This document shows positions 93-9,371 of a stretch of 64,000 bases of DNA, piece by piece (position 1 is the stretch's first letter; the number at the start of each line of letters is the position of its first letter). Both the position numbers and the translations under genes were made by a program. The stretch lies in assembly GCF_057098645.1 (NCBI RefSeq), contig NZ_CM169472.1. One strand, given 5' to 3'. The notes beneath the pieces are model-generated. The model saw only the letters and a program-made list of their open reading frames with translations. It did no database searches and was not told the DNA's origin.

Positions 93-740
93 TCAGGCTG
101 AAATTTTATCTTGTTGATTTTCTGGCGCTGCGGCAATGAACGCTGGCAGCTGTGTGCAGGCGTCGTACACCGCTTTGCAGCGTGGATACCCGCTCAAATC
201 GCAGTTCATGCGTAGCGCGTTTGCCCACTGCGGGACAAGGCAGCAATCTGCCAGCGTCGGCGTCTCGCCCACACAAAATTGCCCCGACTGGTTCTGGCGC
301 AACAGTTGTTCCACCGCGCTTAACCCTTGCTGGATCCAGTGCGCATACCAACGTTTTTTTTCTTCTTCACTGACGTTCAGTTCTTCGGTCAGGTAGCGCA
401 GCACGCGCAAGTTATTTAATGGATGAATATCACAAGCGATGGCATAGACAATTTCCAGCACCTTGTTGCGGGCCGGTTCTTCCTGCGGCACCAGCGGAAC
501 TTGCGGGTAGTGCCTCTCCAGCCAGTCAATAATCGCCAGCGATTGTCCGAGTGATTGGCCCTCGTCAGTCAGCAGCGTCGGCACCAGCCCGACCGGATTC
601 ATCCGCCGATAGGCCAGTTCATTTTGCTGACCAATACGGATATTCACCCCTTCGGTCTGGTAATTAATGCCTTTCAGCGCCAGCGCAATGCGTACCCGGT
701 ACGACGCTGAACTATTAAAAAAACTGTACAGCTTCATCAT
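93..740 (-). CDS. mhbI: maleylpyruvate isomerase (GST zeta-class)
   Basis: 215 aa ORF; N-terminal SSASYRVRIAL zeta-GST signature; context with gentisate dioxygenase and FAH hydrolase. Confidence 0.75.
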   Translation of the reverse strand: MMKLYSFFNSSASYRVRIALALKGINYQTEGVNIRIGQQNELAYRRMNPVGLVPTLLTDEGQSLGQSLAIIDWLERHYPQVPLVPQEEPARNKVLEIVYAIACDIHPLNNLRVLRYLTEELNVSEEEKKRWYAHWIQQGLSAVEQLLRQNQSGQFCVGETPTLADCCLVPQWANALRMNCDLSGYPRCKAVYDACTQLPAFIAAAPENQQDKISA

Positions 741-745
741 GCACC

Positions 746-1447
746 TCAGACAATCTTCACCGCGATAGGCGTTAAGCCCTCGACGTTGCCTGTGATCACA
801 TCACCTTTCACTACCGGGCCAACCCCTTCCGGCGTACCGGTGAAGATCAGATCGCCCGGTTGCAGCTCAAAGAAGCCTGACAGATAGCTGATGGTTTCAT
901 TCACCGACCAGATGAGATGGCGAATATCGCTGCGCTGATGATCTTCGCCGTTAACCTGTAACCAGATTGGCGCATTATCAATACCGCCGATATCGCGGGC
1001 TTTGTGCAGCGGCGCGATGGGCGCTGAGAGATCAAACGCTTTACCGATTTCCCACGGGCGGCCCATCTGGCGCATTTCCATTTGACGGTCACGCCGAGTC
1101 ATATCAAGACCCGTGGCATAACCCCAGACATATTCATGGGCGTGTTCCAGCGGGATATCGCTGCCTTTTTTACCAATCGCCACTACCAGTTCAATTTCGT
1201 AATGATAGTTATCGGTCTGCGCCGGATATGGCAGCGCCAGCGTTTCGCCAGCGGCGACCGGAATAACGGCATCTGCTGGTTTGCAGAAGAAGAAGGGTGG
1301 TTCACGATCCGGATCAAAGCCCATTTCGCGGGCGTGGGCGGCATAGTTACGCCCGACGCAGTAAACGCGACGCACGGGGAATTGTTTATCACTGCCAACA
1401 ACCGGTACGGTAACGGGCGCTTGTGGTTCGAATACATATTGAGTCAT
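746..1447 (-). CDS. mhbH: fumarylpyruvate hydrolase (fumarylacetoacetate hydrolase family)
   Basis: 233 aa ORF with FAH-family features ([14 protein letters not shown], metal-binding E/D cluster); 5-bp spacing to neighbours implies operon. Confidence 0.75.
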
Positions 1448-1462: not shown

Positions 1463-2491
1463 TTAATAACGCGCTTCGCGGAAAAGCCCCAGGGCTTCTT
1501 GTACCGGTCTGTCCGAAAAACTGAATAAAACGGTATCTTGCGTAGTCTGGAATGACACGCCGTGCCAGGTCGGCACCACAAAGATATCTTTTGCACTAAA
1601 GGTGAAGATTTCATTGCCGATGGTGACTTGTCCGCTACCTTCCACTACATGGTAGATAGTGCTGTCAGTGGTGCGCGCCACGCGGGAGGAGAACCCTTTC
1701 GGTAGCAGTTGCAGGAAAGCGCCCATCGACGGCATCGGATAGCCGCCGGTGACCGGGTTGACGTAGCGCATTTTGTAGCCATCCCATTCGTCGGCATCGC
1801 CCATGCGGGTTAAATCGTGCAGCACTTCGCGGCTGCGGTCATAACGATAGTTAAAGATCGGCGAGGAGTTCCCCGTCTGATGGCGCAGCGGCAACATATT
1901 GGCAGCGTAACGCGGCAGGTAATCGCCCTCTTTACGCGTTACCGGTTGTTGATCTTCCGGGTAATCTTCGGCAAAACCGCAGCCCAGAGTGTTCACTAAT
2001 GGCAGATCCAACCCATCGAGCCAGATAACCGGTTCGTCGCCAGGGTTGCCGTGATCGTGCCAGCGCCACTGCGGGGTCAGGATAAAATCGCCCTCATTCA
2101 TTGGCGTGCGTTCGCCGTCAACGGCGGTAAATGCCCCTTTGCCTTCAACAATAAAACGCAGCGCCGACTGGTTATGACGATGACTCGGTGCCACTTCGCC
2201 CGGCATGATCAGTTGCAAACCGGCATATAAAGTCGCGGTGATGGAAGACTGCCCTCGCAGCGCCGGGTTTTCCAGTACCAGCACGCGGCGCACCGCCTCT
2301 TTCGCGCCAATCAGGCTGCCGCTCTCCAGCAGCAGCGGGCGGATCTCCTGATAATTCCAGTACGCTGGCGCACAGTTAGCGTTGGGCGTTTTCGGCACCA
2401 GATGGTGCAGTGACTCCCACAGCGGGGTCAGGTTTTGCCCGGAAATATGCTGATAAAATTGTTCACGGCTATTTTGATTGTTATCAGTCAT
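1463..2491 (-). CDS. mhbD: gentisate 1,2-dioxygenase (bicupin)
   Basis: 342 aa ORF; cupin His motifs ([15 protein letters not shown]); flanked by FAH hydrolase and MFS transporter. Confidence 0.8.
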
Positions 2492-2502
2492 TGGGATGCT
2501 CC

Positions 2503-3861
2503 TTATTCGTTCACAACACCTGCGTGAGGCAGTGAGTCAGGGATAGAGGTCGACTGGCGAACCACGGTGATCAACAGGGTTAACATCACCGCACTGATCG
2601 CCGCAGGCACAGCGATAATGAAAAACAGGGTGTCGAAAGAGAAATTCATCGCCATCATCACGCCGCCAGACAGCGAGCCAACAATCGCGCCGCAGCGGCC
2701 CACGGCGTTTGACCAGCTCACGCCCGTGGCGCGACTTTGTGTTGGATAAAGTGTTGCGGTCAGCGCATTCAGCCCCACCTGCGATCCGCTGATGCCAATG
2801 CCGGTGCCGAAAATCGCCAGCGCCATCAGCCATAATCCATCCTGGCTTAAGCCAATCATCACGATGCATATAGCGCCTGTGGCATAGCTCAGCGCCAGTA
2901 CGCGGAAAGGATTGAACTTATCCATCAGCACGCCCAGCGCCAGCGCGCCCAACGTACCGCCAATCTGGAACGCGGCGGTAACCCAGGAGGCATGTTGCAG
3001 GTCGATGCCGCGATGGTTGAGCAGCGTTGGCATCCAGCTTGAGAGCAGGTAAATAATCAGCAAGCTCATAAAGAACACCACCCACAGCATCAACGTGATG
3101 GGTAACTGACGCCCCATAAACAGTTGACGAATGCTGCCTTTTGTAACGGAGGCTGATTCAATGAGATAAAACTGGGTATCGACATAACGCTCGCGGGTGA
3201 TGGCGCTGACGGTTTTCGCAATCACCGCCTGGGGTAGCTGGCGGCGCACTTGCCAGCGTGGCGATTCCGGCAGAACCACCAGCAGTGCAACAAACAGCAT
3301 CAGCGGTAATACGCCACCCAACACCAGGATCCCGTGCCAGCCAATCACCGGCACCAGCTGCGCGCTGACAATCCCGCCAACCGCCGAACCCAGGGTAAAG
3401 CCGCAAAACATCAGCGTCACCAGCGCGCCGCGGCGGCGGGCAGGCAGATATTCCGAGGTCATGGTGATGGTGTTCGGCATCGCGCCGCCCAGACCCAAGC
3501 CGGTGAGAAAGCGCAGGAAGACCAGAGTTTGCAGATCCGGAGAGAAAGCTGAGGCGAGGCTTAACGCGCCAAACAAAAAGACGCACAGCTCAATCACCCG
3601 CTTGCGACCAAAGCGATCGGACAACGGGCCACAAAGCAGTGCGCCTGCGGTTAACCCCAGCAGACCCGCGCCAAAAAGCGGGGCGAGATCGCCTGCGGTG
3701 AGTTGCCAGTGAGTGCGAATATCAGGGGCGATAAATCCGATAGCCGCGGTGTCAAAACCATCGAGCATTACCACCAGAAAACAGCAGATGATAACGCGCC
3801 ACTGCATCTTGCCGACCGGAGCAGCATCGATAAGTGCTTGTAGATCACGTCGTTGAGTCAT
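2503..3861 (-). CDS. mhbT: MFS aromatic acid (3-hydroxybenzoate/gentisate) transporter
   Basis: 452 aa, multiple TM segments, MFS motif [12 protein letters not shown]; first gene of minus-strand catabolic operon. Confidence 0.75.
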
Positions 3862-3987
3862 AGTAAATGCCTCAGTGCAGGTAAGGTAGATGTTTCTTTT
3901 GTTTTGTATATGTTGCGATATTGTGATTAAAGAGATGAAATGTACAATGGCATTTCGGGCAGAGAGATAACCTGGAGGTTATGGTAA
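3862..3987. promoter_or_regulatory. divergent mhbR / mhbT control region with candidate LysR-type operator (ATTGTGA-N14-TGTACAAT, approx 3920-3950)
   Basis: 126-bp AT-rich spacer between divergently transcribed LysR gene and operon; imperfect inverted repeat of T-N11-A type seen by eye. Confidence 0.35.
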
Positions 3988-4896
3988 ATGGCGAACTGGG
4001 CGCAAAAATTAAAACTACATCACCTTGAAATGCTGGTGGCGTTGGGTGAACAGGGCAATCTGACCCATGTCGCACGAATGATGAATATCACCCAACCTGC
4101 GCTTTCGAAATGGTTGTCACAACTCGAAGATGAGATTGGAATCACACTTTTTGAGCGGCACAGCAAAGGATTACGTCCGACTGAAGGCGGCAAATTGTTA
4201 TTGCAACATGCCCAACGGTTAATCAATGACATGGAGCGATCGCAACATGAACTGGCCCGTTTTAAACAAGGTGGACTGGTCGGCAGTCTGAAAATTGGCT
4301 GTTCTCCCGTCGCCACTGACTGCGTATCCCAGGCGATTTTGCATTTGCTTACGAAGATGCCAACTCTACACCTGAATATCGAAGAGAAGGTGATGACCCC
4401 ATTGCTGCAAGATCTGTTGGCAGGTTCTGTCGACGTGGTCGTTGGGCGAATTGGCGGTCGCGCCTTGCAACTGCCACTGAATTATCAGGTGCTGTACACC
4501 GAGCCAGTATGCTTTGTCGCCAGCCCTGAGCACCCACTGGCGAAATACGCCACCCTCAGTTGGAATGATCTTGCCAACTGGCGCTGGATCGTCTGGCCGA
4601 CGGGTACCCCCATTCGCATTAGTATTGATAATGCGCTGGTAGACCACGGCGTAATGCTGCCAGAAAACACGATTGAGTCGGCGTCGATGAACGTCAGTAC
4701 CAACCTGTTACAAAGCAGCGATATGATCTCTATTTTGTCATTACGCCTGGCGCAACGTTATGCCAGCCAGGGACAACTGGTGATACTCAACCTGCCAAAG
4801 ATAGAACAGAAAGGCAGCGTCGGTGTGTTCTGGCGCAATAACGAAACGCCTTCTTATGCTTTAAGTCAGTTTCTGCACTTTTTACAGCAGAATTAG
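3988..4896 (+). CDS. mhbR: LysR-family transcriptional regulator of the gentisate operon
   Basis: 302 aa; N-terminal HTH (LTHVARMMNITQPALSKWLSQLE) typical of LysR; divergent from catabolic operon. Confidence 0.8.
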   Translation: MANWAQKLKLHHLEMLVALGEQGNLTHVARMMNITQPALSKWLSQLEDEIGITLFERHSKGLRPTEGGKLLLQHAQRLINDMERSQHELARFKQGGLVGSLKIGCSPVATDCVSQAILHLLTKMPTLHLNIEEKVMTPLLQDLLAGSVDVVVGRIGGRALQLPLNYQVLYTEPVCFVASPEHPLAKYATLSWNDLANWRWIVWPTGTPIRISIDNALVDHGVMLPENTIESASMNVSTNLLQSSDMISILSLRLAQRYASQGQLVILNLPKIEQKGSVGVFWRNNETPSYALSQFLHFLQQN

Positions 4897-5149: not shown

Positions 5150-5930
5150 AAGAACCAATTGGAAGGACAACCCATTAGGAATTCCCAGAAAACAAGACAG
5201 GCATAGTGAGATGTGATCTAATTGATTGTGCTAGCAATTTCAAGGATATCACCACTATGCCTGCACGTTCATTATGCCAAAAATTCCTTAAAAACATACT
5301 GGCCACTTTGCATTTCTACCATCAAAAATCACTGATTGACGCAACAAATGCTGTAATAAATGGCGCTTCCCTCACGCTTAGCAGCATCGGGCGTCATTTA
5401 ACCAGACAGCATTAGTTAAAAACAAGATAAAGCGGGTGGATTGACCGTTGGGGAATTCTCAACTGAAAAATGATCTTCCCACCATTTTTCAGTTGGTTAC
5501 TCAAAAAAATACGCTGAGAATGTTCGTGTTGTTGTACGCCTTCGCCAGCAGTGGCAGGATGTTCAGGAGGAGTGTCGGCAGGCAGAGGTCGGATCAGGAG
5601 AGCGGCTGCGTAATGCCCTGCTGAATGTGGATTATACCACCAGTTTTGAACTGCCTTTTCGTCTGCTTTTAACCCGCACGTCACAGCTGATTGCTGTGCT
5701 TTGGGAAGAATGGGATATCAGCCAGAAAAATGTGGTGTTTAACGATAAACGCTTTGGTTGCGTGTATAGCCTGAAGGCCAGTCTTTCCGGCGTGCGGATA
5801 CATTCCGGTATCATCTGTCTCACCGTATTCGCCGGATGGTTGGGAATGAAATACATCATCGCCTTGGCAGCAGATTGCCCGGAAAGTGAAAGCGCTCCGT
5901 GAATGACTTAAGTATGCGCTAGAGGAGGGA
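5150..5930 (+). mobile_element. degenerate IS4-family (IS10-like) transposase remnant, frameshifted and 3'-truncated
   Basis: Short ORFs 5206-5415 and 5627-5902 carry IS10-like N-terminal motifs (ASLTLSSIGRHL cf. IS10 TLTLTELGRNL; IAVLWEEWDISQK cf. IVLVDWSDIREQK); boundaries approximate. Confidence 0.4.
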
Positions 5931-6082
5931 TTACTGGTGACCGCACTGGACGGTCTGTTCTGGTCTGGTAGTCAGCGTATTGCGGAAGATATTCTGTGTC
6001 GTTACGGGGAAGTCATCTTCACAGGGATCTTCAGTCAGTTAGTATTACCGACATTCATTCACCAACTTACCGGAGATAATCG

Positions 6083-6412
6083 ATGTCAAAACCCCGATGG
6101 ACCATTGAACAGAAAAGGCAGCACGTTGCTGCCTGGCGCGCCAGTGGTCTTACACGTCAGCAATACTGTGAACTCAACGATATTCCCTTCACATCACTTC
6201 GCGAATGGCCGCAGGATGTCGCAAAAGCTGAACGCCGGGCAAATGAACCGACCGTTCTTCCCGTTCATATTGCGCCACCACTGCATGCTGATGTACCACA
6301 GCCCGTCACGAATGAGCCAGTCACGCTCTTCCTTCCCGGCGGAGTACGGATGTGCTGTCAGCCGTCACAACTTACCGATGTCTTCAGGGCGCTCAAATAT
6401 GCTCAGTCCTGA
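6083..6412 (+). CDS. IS66-family accessory protein TnpA (orf1)
   Basis: 109 aa, HTH-like (WTIEQKRQHVAAWRASGLTRQQYCELNDI); stop overlaps tnpB start. Confidence 0.65.
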   Translation: MSKPRWTIEQKRQHVAAWRASGLTRQQYCELNDIPFTSLREWPQDVAKAERRANEPTVLPVHIAPPLHADVPQPVTNEPVTLFLPGGVRMCCQPSQLTDVFRALKYAQS

Positions 6413-6791
6413 TAATGTCTTCATCGCGATTAAACCTGTTGACATGCGCCGGGGCATCGACACACTGACGCAGTATATACAGGATGAACTCCGGTCGACA
6501 TGGCATGAGGGAGCCGCCTTCGTCTTTGTTAACAAAGACCGTTCGCGTATCAAAGTTCTCCGGTGGGATAAACACGGGGTGTGGTTGTGTACCCGCCGTC
6601 TTCACAAAGGCAGCTTCCGCTGGCCACGTGCAAATGATGCTGCCTGGCACCTCACTCCCGACGAGTTTAACTGGCTGATTGCCGGTGTTGACTGGCAGCA
6701 GGTTAAGGGACATGGCCTGACGAAATGGGTCTGGCAAAATGAACCTGAACTGCGCCCTGAAAACACGCAAAACACACTGCTAACTCACTGA
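6399..6791 (+). CDS. IS66-family TnpB (orf2)
   Basis: In-frame ATG at 6399 within track ORF 5937-6791; sequence MLSPDNVFIAIKPVDMRRGIDTL... resembles IS66 orf2. Confidence 0.6.
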   Translation: MLSPDNVFIAIKPVDMRRGIDTLTQYIQDELRSTWHEGAAFVFVNKDRSRIKVLRWDKHGVWLCTRRLHKGSFRWPRANDAAWHLTPDEFNWLIAGVDWQQVKGHGLTKWVWQNEPELRPENTQNTLLTH

Positions 6792-6797
6792 AAAATA

Positions 6798-7845
6798 ATG
6801 AATATTCGTATCCGGAGTGGTATGCTCCCCTGTATGGATATCTCCGCTCTCAACACCACGAATGACATCGAAAAACTGCGTGCTATGGCACTTGCCATGG
6901 TACAAAAAGTCATGTCGGAGAATGCCGAAAAAGAGCGGGAATTACTGGAGAAAAGCCGGCGCATCCAGCTTCTGGAAGAAATGCTGAAACTGGTTCGTCA
7001 ACAGCGCTTCGGTAAAAAATGTGAAACGCTGGCTGGTATGCAACGCTCCCTGTTCGAAGAGGATGTTGATGTCGATATCGCCGAGCTCACCGCACATCTG
7101 GATAAACTGCTCCCGCAATCCCCTGAAGAAGACGAAAAAGCGTCCCGTTCACGCCCGATACGCAAACCCTTACCGGCTCATCTTCCACGGGTGGAAAAAA
7201 TTATCCAGCCGGACACTGACCATTGCCCTGAATGTGACGAGCCGCTGCACTATATCCGTGATGCGGTGAGTGAAAAGCTGGAGTATATTCCCGCTCACTT
7301 TGTGGTGAACTGTTATGTCCGTCCGCAATACAGTTGTCCCTGTTGCCAGAAGGTGTTCAGCGGTGAAATGCCGGCACATATCCTCCCGAAAAGTGCCGTT
7401 GAGCCATCAGTCATCGCACAGGTGATCATCAATAAATACGGTGAGCACCTGCCTCTGTATCGCCAGCAACAGGTCTTTGCCCGTTCAGATGTCGGACTGC
7501 CCGTCAGTTCGATGGCTGACATGGTTGGCGCGGCAGGGGCCGCATTATCCCCCCTCGCGGCGTTACTCCATCGCGAATTGATAAGCCGTCCGGTGGTGCA
7601 TGCAGATGAGACTACCCTGAAGATCCTGAACACGAAGAAAGGCGGTAAATCCTGCTCCGGTTATCTGTGGGCATACGTCAGTGGAGAAAGGACGGGACCG
7701 TCAGTTGTGTGCTTCGACTGCCGGACCGGACGTAGCCATGAGTATCCTGAAAACTGGCTTCAGGGCTGGGGCGGGACGCTGGTTGTCGACGGACATAAAG
7801 CTTACCGGACTCTGGCAAACAAAGTGCCGGAGCTGGCGAATATCA
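6798..7845 (+). pseudogene. IS66-family transposase TnpC, C-terminally truncated (about 350 of about 520 aa)
   Basis: Coiled-coil N-term, zinc finger CPECDE...CPCCQ, DDE motifs; homology ends after LVVDGHKAYRTLANKVPEL where a Gly/Ala-rich PT-VENN-like sequence begins. Confidence 0.6.
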
Positions 7846-8441
7846 TCGGTCATCACGCGGGTATTGATGACAATACAGCGGCAAAAGCCATTGCCCATGC
7901 CATTCTCGGTGGTGTGACAGCAGCCCTTCAGGGCAACAGTGCGGCAGCAGGCGCAATTGGTGCGGGTACTGGTGAAGTGATCTCGTCAGCCATTGCGAAA
8001 AGCCTCTACCCGGACGTAGATCCGTCGAAACTGACAGAAGATCAGAAGCAAACCGTAAGCACGCTGGCAACGCTGTCAGCGGGTATGGCTGGCGGCATTG
8101 CCAGTGGCGATGTGGCTGGCACAGCTGCAGGGGCTGGTGTTGGGAAGAACATTGCTGAGAATAACTTGGTTGGTGGCACAGAGTCCGAGCAGAGCAAAGC
8201 TGCTCAGACGCATGGCGCAGATGTACTTTCCTGTAACGATGCTCCAGGCGGTGAAGCCTGTAAGCGAGGAGAAGCAGTCAATAAAGCGTATGCCGGAGCG
8301 TTGGCCACTGGTAGTGTAGCTCTCTTACCTGGCGGTGCTCAGGCCATGTGGGCTCTTGGCACAGGTGCAAATGCAGGAATTGGTTACATGGTAGATAGTT
8401 CAGTTGATCCTGAAAATGCAATCATTGCAGGATGGGTCTGA
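7846..8441 (+). pseudogene. orphan CdiA-CT-like toxin fragment: pretoxin PT-VENN-like region (AENN) plus about 90 aa of CT N-terminal region, cut by IS629
   Basis: KLTEDQKQTVSTLATLSAGMAGGIASGDVAGTAAGAGVGKNIAENN resembles CdiA pretoxin region ending in VENN-type motif; two Cys after motif; reading frame ends at TGA that is first triplet of IS629 IR. Confidence 0.5.
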
Positions 8442-8480
8442 ACCGCCCCGGGTTTCCTGGAGAGTGTTTTATCTGTGAAC

Positions 8481-9371
8481 TCAGGCTGCCAGATCATCGT
8501 TTCCGATGGAAGCATAATAAGCTTTTTCTGCTTCTGCCGGAGGAGTATGGCCCAGCCTTTCCAGCAATCGTCGATTGTTATACCAGTCCACCCACGTGAG
8601 TGTGGCCAGTTCCACTTCTGCACGGTTTTTCCAGCTCTTACGGTGTATTACCTCCGCTTTGTAAAGACCATTGATGCTCTCCGCCATCGCGTTGTCATAC
8701 GAGTCGCCTGTACTTCCTGTTGATGCCAGTAATCCGGCTTCCTTAAGCCGCTGTGTGTAGGCCAGCGATACATACTGAGAACCTTTATCACTGTGATGGA
8801 CCGTGCCGGACGGTCGACGGGCCCATAACGCCTGCTCCAGTGCATCCAGCACGAATGTCGTCTCCATGGACGATGAGACCCGCCACCCCACAATGTATCC
8901 GGCAAACACATCAATGATGAACGCCACATAGACGAAGCCCTGCCATGTGCTGACGTAAGTAAAATCAGCCACCCACAGCTGGTCAGGTCGTTCTGCCACG
9001 AACTGACGGTTTACGCGGTCGCCTGCGGCAACGGCTTTCCGGCTGATGGTCGTACGGACCTTTTTACCCCGGAGAACACCGGCAAGTCCCATAACCGCCA
9101 TGAGACGTGCCACAGTGCATCTGGCCACTCTGATACCTTCCCGTAACAACTGACGCCAGACTTTACGCACACCGTATACCTTGTGATTTTCATCGTATAC
9201 GCGCTGTATCTCTTTCTTCAGCCAGTCATCGCGCTGCGCACGGGCACTGCGTTTATCCGGATGATGTCGCTGTTGCTGACAGTGGTAATACGTTGACGGG
9301 GCAATATGCAGTTCGCTGCATAGCGGTCCGACCCCGTACTGCTCACGCAGCTTATCCAGCAGTGGCATCAT
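8481..9371 (-). CDS. IS629 transposase OrfB (DDE integrase domain)
   Basis: 296 aa with DDE motifs ([25 protein letters not shown]); start overlaps orfA stop; expressed as OrfAB by -1 frameshift. Confidence 0.85.

Follow-up and report, generated by a model that had tools for sequence, protein, structure and literature searches.

The LysR-type regulators BenM, CatM and CbnR act as tetramers that occupy a recognition site near -65 and an activation site near -35 of the target promoter, and they activate transcription by a sliding-dimer mechanism. Systems of this type are also subject to autorepression, which operates through an overlapping divergent promoter. The T-N11-A box of LysR-type regulators is a 15-bp dyad that is contacted by one dimer. 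PcaQ, which controls protocatechuate genes, and MhbR, which controls gentisate genes, have different inducers. Like MhbR, PcaQ of Sinorhizobium meliloti and Agrobacterium tumefaciens regulates an aromatic ring-cleavage pathway (MacLean et al. 2008, 2011). The PcaQ box is quoted in one article as ATAACC-N4-GGTTAT (PMC3557286), and a PcaQ target in S. meliloti, the pcaM site ATAaccgggggatTAT, is given in another as centred 65.5 bp upstream (PMC5002191). PA2206, a PcaQ-type LysR regulator of Pseudomonas aeruginosa, binds ATTGCCTGGGGTTAT, which adjoins a -35 region (PMC3557286).

MhbR and the mhbTDHIM genes have been described in Klebsiella pneumoniae M5a1 (Lin, Liu and Zhou 2010, Microbiol Res 165:66, as cited in PMC3572157). 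Literature text searches on MhbR and mhbT, from whose scope the article of Lin et al. itself falls outside, returned no description of an MhbR binding site. The system of strain M5a1, which is now placed in the oxytoca/michiganensis group, is orthologous to the one analysed here; its genes are arranged in the same order, and mhbR is likewise divergent. Loci L018 and L043, from K. oxytoca and K. michiganensis, encode a regulator that is 83-84% identical and have a 126-bp spacer with identical copies of ATAACCTGGAGGTTAT and TGTACAAT. The mhbT-mhbR spacer is a known kind of LysR-type divergent control region that has already been studied in Klebsiella.

Results

Genomic setting of the mhb cluster

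The window is the whole stretch of DNA that was analysed, 64,000 nucleotides in length, and it is 100% identical to chromosomes of E. coli O145:H28. Within it, mhbR and mhbT are transcribed divergently from ATG codons at 3988 (plus strand) and 3861 (minus strand), and the 126 bp between them (3862-3987) constitute the spacer, so that the locus has the short-spacer divergent arrangement of LysR-type control regions. The coordinates of all features are collected in Table 1. An earlier note on this DNA, made from the letters alone, had delimited exactly this spacer, and the gene identities that it had assigned, namely a gentisate 1,2-dioxygenase, a PcaK/MhbT-type transporter and a divergent LysR-family regulator, were confirmed by profile matches and by RefSeq, which annotates mhbR as a LysR family regulator. 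The mhbT gene is the first gene of the regulated operon. The portion of the operon that lies downstream of mhbT inside the window occupies 93-2491 on the minus strand, and the next operon gene encodes 3-hydroxybenzoate 6-monooxygenase according to the RefSeq annotation, which agrees on the other genes.

Table 1 Features of the mhb locus and of the mhbT-mhbR spacer, in window coordinates.
Feature	Position	Strand	Remarks
Maleylpyruvate/maleylacetoacetate isomerase (maiA)	93-740	-	NCBIfam TIGR01262, 309 bits, above cut-off
Fumarylacetoacetate-hydrolase-family protein, presumed fumarylpyruvate hydrolase	746-1447	-	
Gentisate 1,2-dioxygenase (gtdA)	1463-2491	-	NCBIfam TIGR02272, 603 bits, above cut-off
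mhbT	2503-3861	-	3-Hydroxybenzoate/aromatic-acid MFS transporter (PcaK/MhbT-type); ATG at 3861
mhbT Shine-Dalgarno	3869-3873	-	GAGGC; CCTC invariant and preceding G at least 90% conserved across orthologous spacers
Alternative mhbT -10 box, CAACAT	3910-3915	-	
Candidate mhbT -10 box, CAATAT	3918-3923	-	T3922 and A3918 (box positions 2 and 6) invariant in the MAFFT alignment, which is unreliable here for seven distant spacers; once these are re-anchored by eye, position 6 differs in two
Reported imperfect inverted repeat, ATTGTGA-N14-TGTACAAT	3920-3948		Arms 3920-3926 and 3941-3948
Predicted mhbR -35 box, TTGTGA	3921-3926	+	Promoter scan; most of reported left arm
Candidate mhbT -35 region, TGTACA or TTGTAC	3941-3947	-	Would lie 17-18 bp from the 3918-3923 box; position inferred; overlaps mhbR -10 box
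Predicted mhbR -10 box, TACAAT	3943-3948	+	Promoter scan; most of reported right arm
Conserved block, GGCATTTCGGGC (consensus GGyWTTTCnnGC)	3949-3960		Between mhbR -10 box and palindrome
Perfect palindrome, ATAACCTGGAGGTTAT (ATAACC-TGGA-GGTTAT)	3967-3982		Proposed primary MhbR recognition site; in mhbR leader
mhbR Shine-Dalgarno	3974-3978	+	GGAGG inside the palindrome; 9 nt before ATG 3988; conserved
mhbR	3988-4896	+	LysR-family regulator, 302 aa; ATG at 3988

In E. coli, whose serotype O145:H28 is the host here, the cluster is accessory. Of 5426 complete E. coli genomes, 613 contained a 2.6-kb stretch around the spacer, usually on the chromosome, and 26 copies were plasmid-borne. To the right of mhbR, at about 5257-8500 of the window (converted from the annotation of locus L060 as locus coordinate minus 1101), lie remnants of IS4-like, IS66-family (tnpA, tnpB and tnpC) and IS3-family elements, several of which are annotated as frameshifted or truncated. 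The IS remnants, the restricted distribution among E. coli genomes and the plasmid-borne copies indicated that the mhb cluster is accessory, mobile DNA. A 13-nt direct repeat, with copies at 3857-3869 (GTCATAGTAAATG) and 3978-3990 (GTTATGGTAAATG) that are 85% identical, spans both divergent start codons and is probably a coincidence.

MhbR is a relative of PcaQ

Proteins of the LysR type have about 300 aa, with an HTH_1 domain at the N terminus and a LysR substrate-binding domain at the C terminus. MhbR is a protein of this type, with full-length matches to NCBIfam LysR-family models over its 302 aa, and its homologues carry the domains PF00126 and PF03466. Its matches in the PDB were all LysR-type regulators, and the structures of BenM, CatM and CbnR were matched at E values of 1e-11 to 1e-14. 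The best curated family was TF_pcaQ (TIGR02424, NCBIfam), with an E value of 9e-55 and a score of 185.6 bits, where the family in second place scored 105.5 bits, yet the 185.6 bits do not reach the PcaQ equivalog cut-off of 303.8 bits. MhbR was therefore considered to be a relative of PcaQ and not a PcaQ, and because its score lies below the cut-off, a box shared with PcaQ could be the product of convergence. True PcaQ was absent from the 20 representative homologues that were scanned, all of which scored below the cut-off, and a search of plasmid-encoded proteins at E 1e-35 did not extend as far as Sinorhizobium pSymB.

The orthologous spacers

A promoter scan on the window alone is weak evidence, and therefore 53 loci with mhbR orthologues were gathered from a collection that holds one genome per species. 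These loci extend from Escherichia, Citrobacter, Klebsiella, Kluyvera, Serratia and Salmonella down to Leminorella, Limnobaculum and Xenorhabdus (65-66% regulator identity), and they yielded 48 distinct orthologous spacers. A homologue of mhbT was divergent to the regulator in 52 of the 53 loci; in the other (L037), the contig ends before the neighbouring gene. The spacers were aligned with MAFFT, and the seven most distant, for which the alignment was unreliable at 3905-3935, were re-anchored on conserved blocks. Sigma-70 promoters in the orthologous spacers were scored with a matrix that approximates published hexamer frequencies.

Several spacers deserve separate mention. One 9-kb contig labelled MAG: Collinsella sp. 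(L001, JAIJJM010000061.1) carries the same spacer sequence as the E. coli window, and over the parts of mhbR and mhbT that were compared its proteins match those of the window at 100% identity; almost certainly, this is an E. coli contig that was binned wrongly. The spacers of Kluyvera, Pseudenterobacter and one enterobacterium (L023-L028, L035 and L046) measure 169-170 bp rather than 126. These longer spacers contain a 44-bp insertion between 3885 and 3886, in the predicted mhbT leader, which has an inverted repeat of its own (CCGTTC...GAACGG) and leaves the promoter/operator module intact. The length changes of the distant taxa map between window positions 3924 and 3946. The gap from the ATGTTGCnnnnTTGT block to the module formed by AATGG and the palindrome is longer by exactly 11 bp, which is one helical turn, in five distant taxa (L039, L041, L042, L044 and L053), and by 28 bp in Enterobacillus (L040). 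With five distant taxa at exactly +11 bp, the spacing of the module appears to be kept in helical phase. The ATGTTGC...TTGT block could be the mhbT -10 region or something else.

A conserved palindrome in front of mhbR

The spacer contains a perfect palindrome whose 7-bp arms, ATAACCT and AGGTTAT, were 100% complementary according to the repeat finder, and the sole exact match to ATAACCNNNNGGTTAT in the 64-kb window is this palindrome. Of the 53 orthologous loci, 49 carry it unchanged and at a constant offset before the mhbR ATG. These 49 reach as far as Limnobaculum (66% regulator identity), whereas Xenorhabdus (65%) and Leminorella (66%) have variants that differ at one position. Each of the four remaining loci departs from the palindrome at a single position, which in three cases belongs to the innermost pair. 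Conservation of the 12 specified positions is 94-100%, compared with about 50% for the bases just outside. Part of the conservation at the centre could be translational, since the palindrome contains the mhbR Shine-Dalgarno sequence.

The distance from the invariant AATGG (3946-3950) to the palindrome was 21 nt in all 48 distinct spacers, and 3943-3982 can therefore be regarded as one rigid module. In the conserved block between the two, G3949, G3950, T3953 and C3960 are invariant, and TTC at 3954-3956 is at least 92% conserved. This block is a probable extension, or a probable activation subsite, of the MhbR footprint, as judged from its conservation and position.

The palindrome belongs to the PcaQ-type boxes, ATAACC-N4-GGTTA(T/A), and matches the quoted PcaQ box letter for letter. 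As a T-N12-A element of 16 bp it is, like the PcaQ box, one bp wider than the textbook T-N11-A box. The box of BenM, CatM and CbnR differs in being a 15-bp T-N11-A element, ATAC-N7-GTAT, and the spacer lacks a recognisable second or third copy; inspection of the spacer by eye revealed no convincing degenerate copy of the box that would mark an activation subsite. The PA2206 box is closely related to the palindrome, but it is 15 bp long and imperfect. PA2206, moreover, is not divergent to its target and has an oxidative-stress regulon, whereas MhbR is divergent to the gentisate operon. Counted from the weak candidate -10 boxes, the centre of the palindrome (3974.5) would come at about -61 to -72 relative to the predicted mhbT start. 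Recognition sites of LysR-type regulators are usually centred in this region, at about -55 to -80. The spacer very probably holds a regulator binding site, and the palindrome is the probable MhbR recognition site.

Beyond the orthologues, the next relatives of MhbR in a search of 1.8 billion representative proteins were only 37-41% identical. Those that could be placed on contigs were again divergent from gentisate-pathway genes, as was a 41%-identical regulator on the Pseudomonas plasmid pXWY. In two of these loci (L054, 2396-2500, and L061, 3323-3503), an ATAATG box is retained, and after a further 25 nt a related 16-bp dyad, ATACC-N6-GGCAT, directly precedes the start codon of the regulator; a third (L057, 2052-2161) has TACAATG with a different dyad, GTAT-N6-ATAC. 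The module, in which a -10-like box and a 16-bp dyad stand at a fixed distance from each other ahead of the regulator start, is therefore older than the enterobacterial clade, and its age argues against the palindrome being a mere feature of the ribosome-binding site. Locus L054 also carries GATTAA-N6-TTAATC.

Two other dyads in the spacer were considered and rejected. The dyad GAAATG-N8-CATTTC (3937-3956) was discarded as a site, its spacing being different in Kluyvera (13 nt). A perfect 7-bp inverted repeat, AAATGCC/GGCATTT (3865-3871 and 3949-3955, 77 nt apart), joins the mhbT ribosome-binding region to the conserved block beside the mhbR -10 box. As a long-range RNA pairing it was dismissed, for it showed no covariation across the orthologues and its upstream arm would be untranscribed from the predicted mhbT start.

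Predicted core promoters overlap in the spacer

The earlier note had proposed a different element, the imperfect inverted repeat ATTGTGA-N14-TGTACAAT, as a T-N11-A-compatible LysR site and a plausible inducer-responsive operator. The promoter scan of the region gave two matches, where 0.6 were expected, and on the plus strand, toward mhbR, it identified TTGTGA-16-TACAAT with 9 of 12 positions matched. Under the approximate sigma-70 matrix, TTGTnn-16-TACAAT, located in the same alignment columns, outscored all other plus-strand promoters in 42 of the 48 spacers. The TTGT at 3921-3924 is 85-100% conserved, and the last two bases of the hexamer vary. A -10-like hexamer, [TG]AnAAT, was present in every one of the 48 spacers, even those without the dyad; A3944, A3946, A3947 and T3948 are invariant, and the third hexamer position is C or T. 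The reported arms thus have the hallmarks of a sigma-70 promoter, with hexamers 16-18 bp apart and conserved positions 2 and 6 of the -10 box.

No minus-strand promoter of consensus grade was found in the spacer by the promoter scan, as expected for an activator-dependent mhbT promoter. The best minus-strand matches in each species were weak and scattered, falling at 3915-3910 in 12 and at 3923-3918 in 5. With either choice of mhbT -10 box, the mhbT -35 region would fall on the mhbR -10 box, and the mhbT -10 box would fall on or beside the mhbR -35 box. The reported arms are best read as the putative boxes of two overlapping, oppositely oriented core promoters, and it is this overlap in opposite orientation that would give them their partial symmetry. 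A CRP site at TGTGA (3922-3926) was also considered and rejected, since a second half-site is lacking and the orthologues do not preserve TGTGA.

Alternative readings of the conserved elements

It is possible, though on balance doubtful, that the palindrome is the primary site and that the right arm with its surroundings (about 3935-3960) forms a secondary activation site for the second DNA-binding pair of the MhbR tetramer. The activation site of LysR-type regulators overlaps the -35 region of the target, which is predicted here at 3941-3947, and the sequence from 3943 to 3960 is highly conserved and rigidly spaced from the palindrome. The conservation at the right arm is, however, fully explained by a -10 box of the pattern TAnAAT, and no degenerate ATAACC/GGTTAT half-site copies are evident around 3935-3960. 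Moreover, the left arm would sit at the mhbT -10 box, beyond the usual footprints of LysR-type regulators.

Alternatively, the palindrome might work chiefly at the level of RNA, where a hairpin in the mhbR leader would cover the Shine-Dalgarno sequence, and so serve translational control rather than protein binding. It would be transcribed if mhbR starts near 3955 as predicted, with a 6-bp stem in which GGAGG is partly paired, and the natural variant ATAATC (L050) would retain a G-U pair. Against this, the hairpin is weak (-4.9 kcal/mol), the fold of the leader has a z-score of +0.40 with 128 of 200 shuffles at least as stable, the spacer had no match in Rfam at E values up to 1, and three other natural variants break the innermost pair. 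Nor would a hairpin account for the identity of the palindrome with a box known to bind protein, or for its constant distance from the DNA elements upstream, and this reading is accordingly unlikely. We also think it improbable that the palindrome is dual, acting both as a DNA operator that activates mhbT and as an RNA hairpin over the mhbR ribosome-binding site, and that it forms a compact switch with the mirror-image promoters. If this were true, control at two levels by one palindrome, together with promoters in which each -10 box doubles as the -35 region of the other, would result in either/or expression of the regulator and the operon.

That the reported repeat itself is the MhbR recognition site and an inducer-responsive operator is very unlikely. 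It is located between the divergent starts, TTGT...ACAA is kept in 41 of the 48 spacers, and the two strings do lie where the earlier note had placed them, 14 nt apart. Only five positions are complementary, however (ATTGT at 3920-3924 and ACAAT at 3944-3948, 19 nt apart), and the next three mismatch. In 2000 dinucleotide-preserving shuffles of the spacer, 44.5% contained at least one perfect 5-bp inverted repeat with a gap of 15-23 nt (one observed, shuffle mean 0.72), and the repeat is therefore no more than would arise by chance. Its span of 29 bp is roughly twice the 15-16 bp of a LysR-type T-N11-A box and makes it incompatible with the T-N11-A geometry that had been claimed for it. The centres of its half-sites are separated by about 24 bp, and it is a misfit to one LysR dimer. 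Neither the 29-bp repeat nor the T-N12-A palindrome contains T-N11-A within a dyad. While the right arm was exact in 41 of the 48 distinct spacers, the left arm ATTGTGA was exact in only 3, and the more distant taxa have AAGATAAT or AATATAAT in place of TGTACAAT, which abolishes the dyad but leaves a -10 box that is as good or even better. The palindrome, which is perfect, typical of the family and much more strongly conserved, lies 20 bp to the right of the repeat. The expectation of an operator in this spacer was therefore sound to the extent that the spacer holds a strong candidate of LysR type, judged by sequence and conservation, at 3967-3982, but the reported repeat is not that operator.

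That nothing in this AT-rich spacer is regulatory, and that repeat and palindrome alike arose by chance, is scarcely credible. The repeat is at chance level in shuffles, and 10% of the shuffled spacers contain a 7-bp inverted repeat at some position, but the palindrome is near-invariant over 53 loci amid freely varying neighbouring bases and is the single exact match in 64 kb. Its conservation excludes chance for the palindrome, and chance remains the best description of the reported repeat taken as a dyad.

Discussion

The comparison of orthologous spacers makes it probable that the mhbT-mhbR spacer is a LysR-type divergent control region in which the palindrome is the primary MhbR site and the reported arms are boxes of overlapping promoters. 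In the model that follows, we infer binding, start sites, inducers and the direction of regulation. An MhbR tetramer would be positioned on the palindrome, its primary, high-affinity site and a PcaQ-type box, and on the adjacent conserved block at 3949-3960. Upon binding of 3-hydroxybenzoate or gentisate, the second DNA-binding pair would shift toward the mhbT -35 region, and MhbR in the shifted position would recruit RNA polymerase for the transcription of mhbT-gtdA-hydrolase-maiA-mhbM.

The palindrome would lie at about +12 to +28 of the predicted mhbR transcript, the start of which is predicted near 3955, and the same occupancy by MhbR would block both the mhbR promoter and the leader, resulting in negative autoregulation. 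Bound MhbR would be expected to repress mhbR because the palindrome is situated in the mhbR leader and the activation region would lie over the mhbR -10 box. Since the two predicted core promoters share about 30 bp, polymerase would be able to occupy only one of them at a time.

Beyond annotation, these findings matter little, as the spacer is orthologous to the mhbR-mhbT control region of Klebsiella and is laid out like those of many LysR-type systems. The useful correction concerns which bases are to be named the operator. On present evidence, the operator to mutate, or to use in a 3-hydroxybenzoate or gentisate biosensor, would be 3967-3982 and not the reported repeat; mutation of the latter would harm both core promoters and give misleading reporter results. 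For the regulator family, the palindrome would extend the PcaQ-type box ATAACC-N4-GGTTAT to an enterobacterial gentisate regulator that lies below the PcaQ family threshold.
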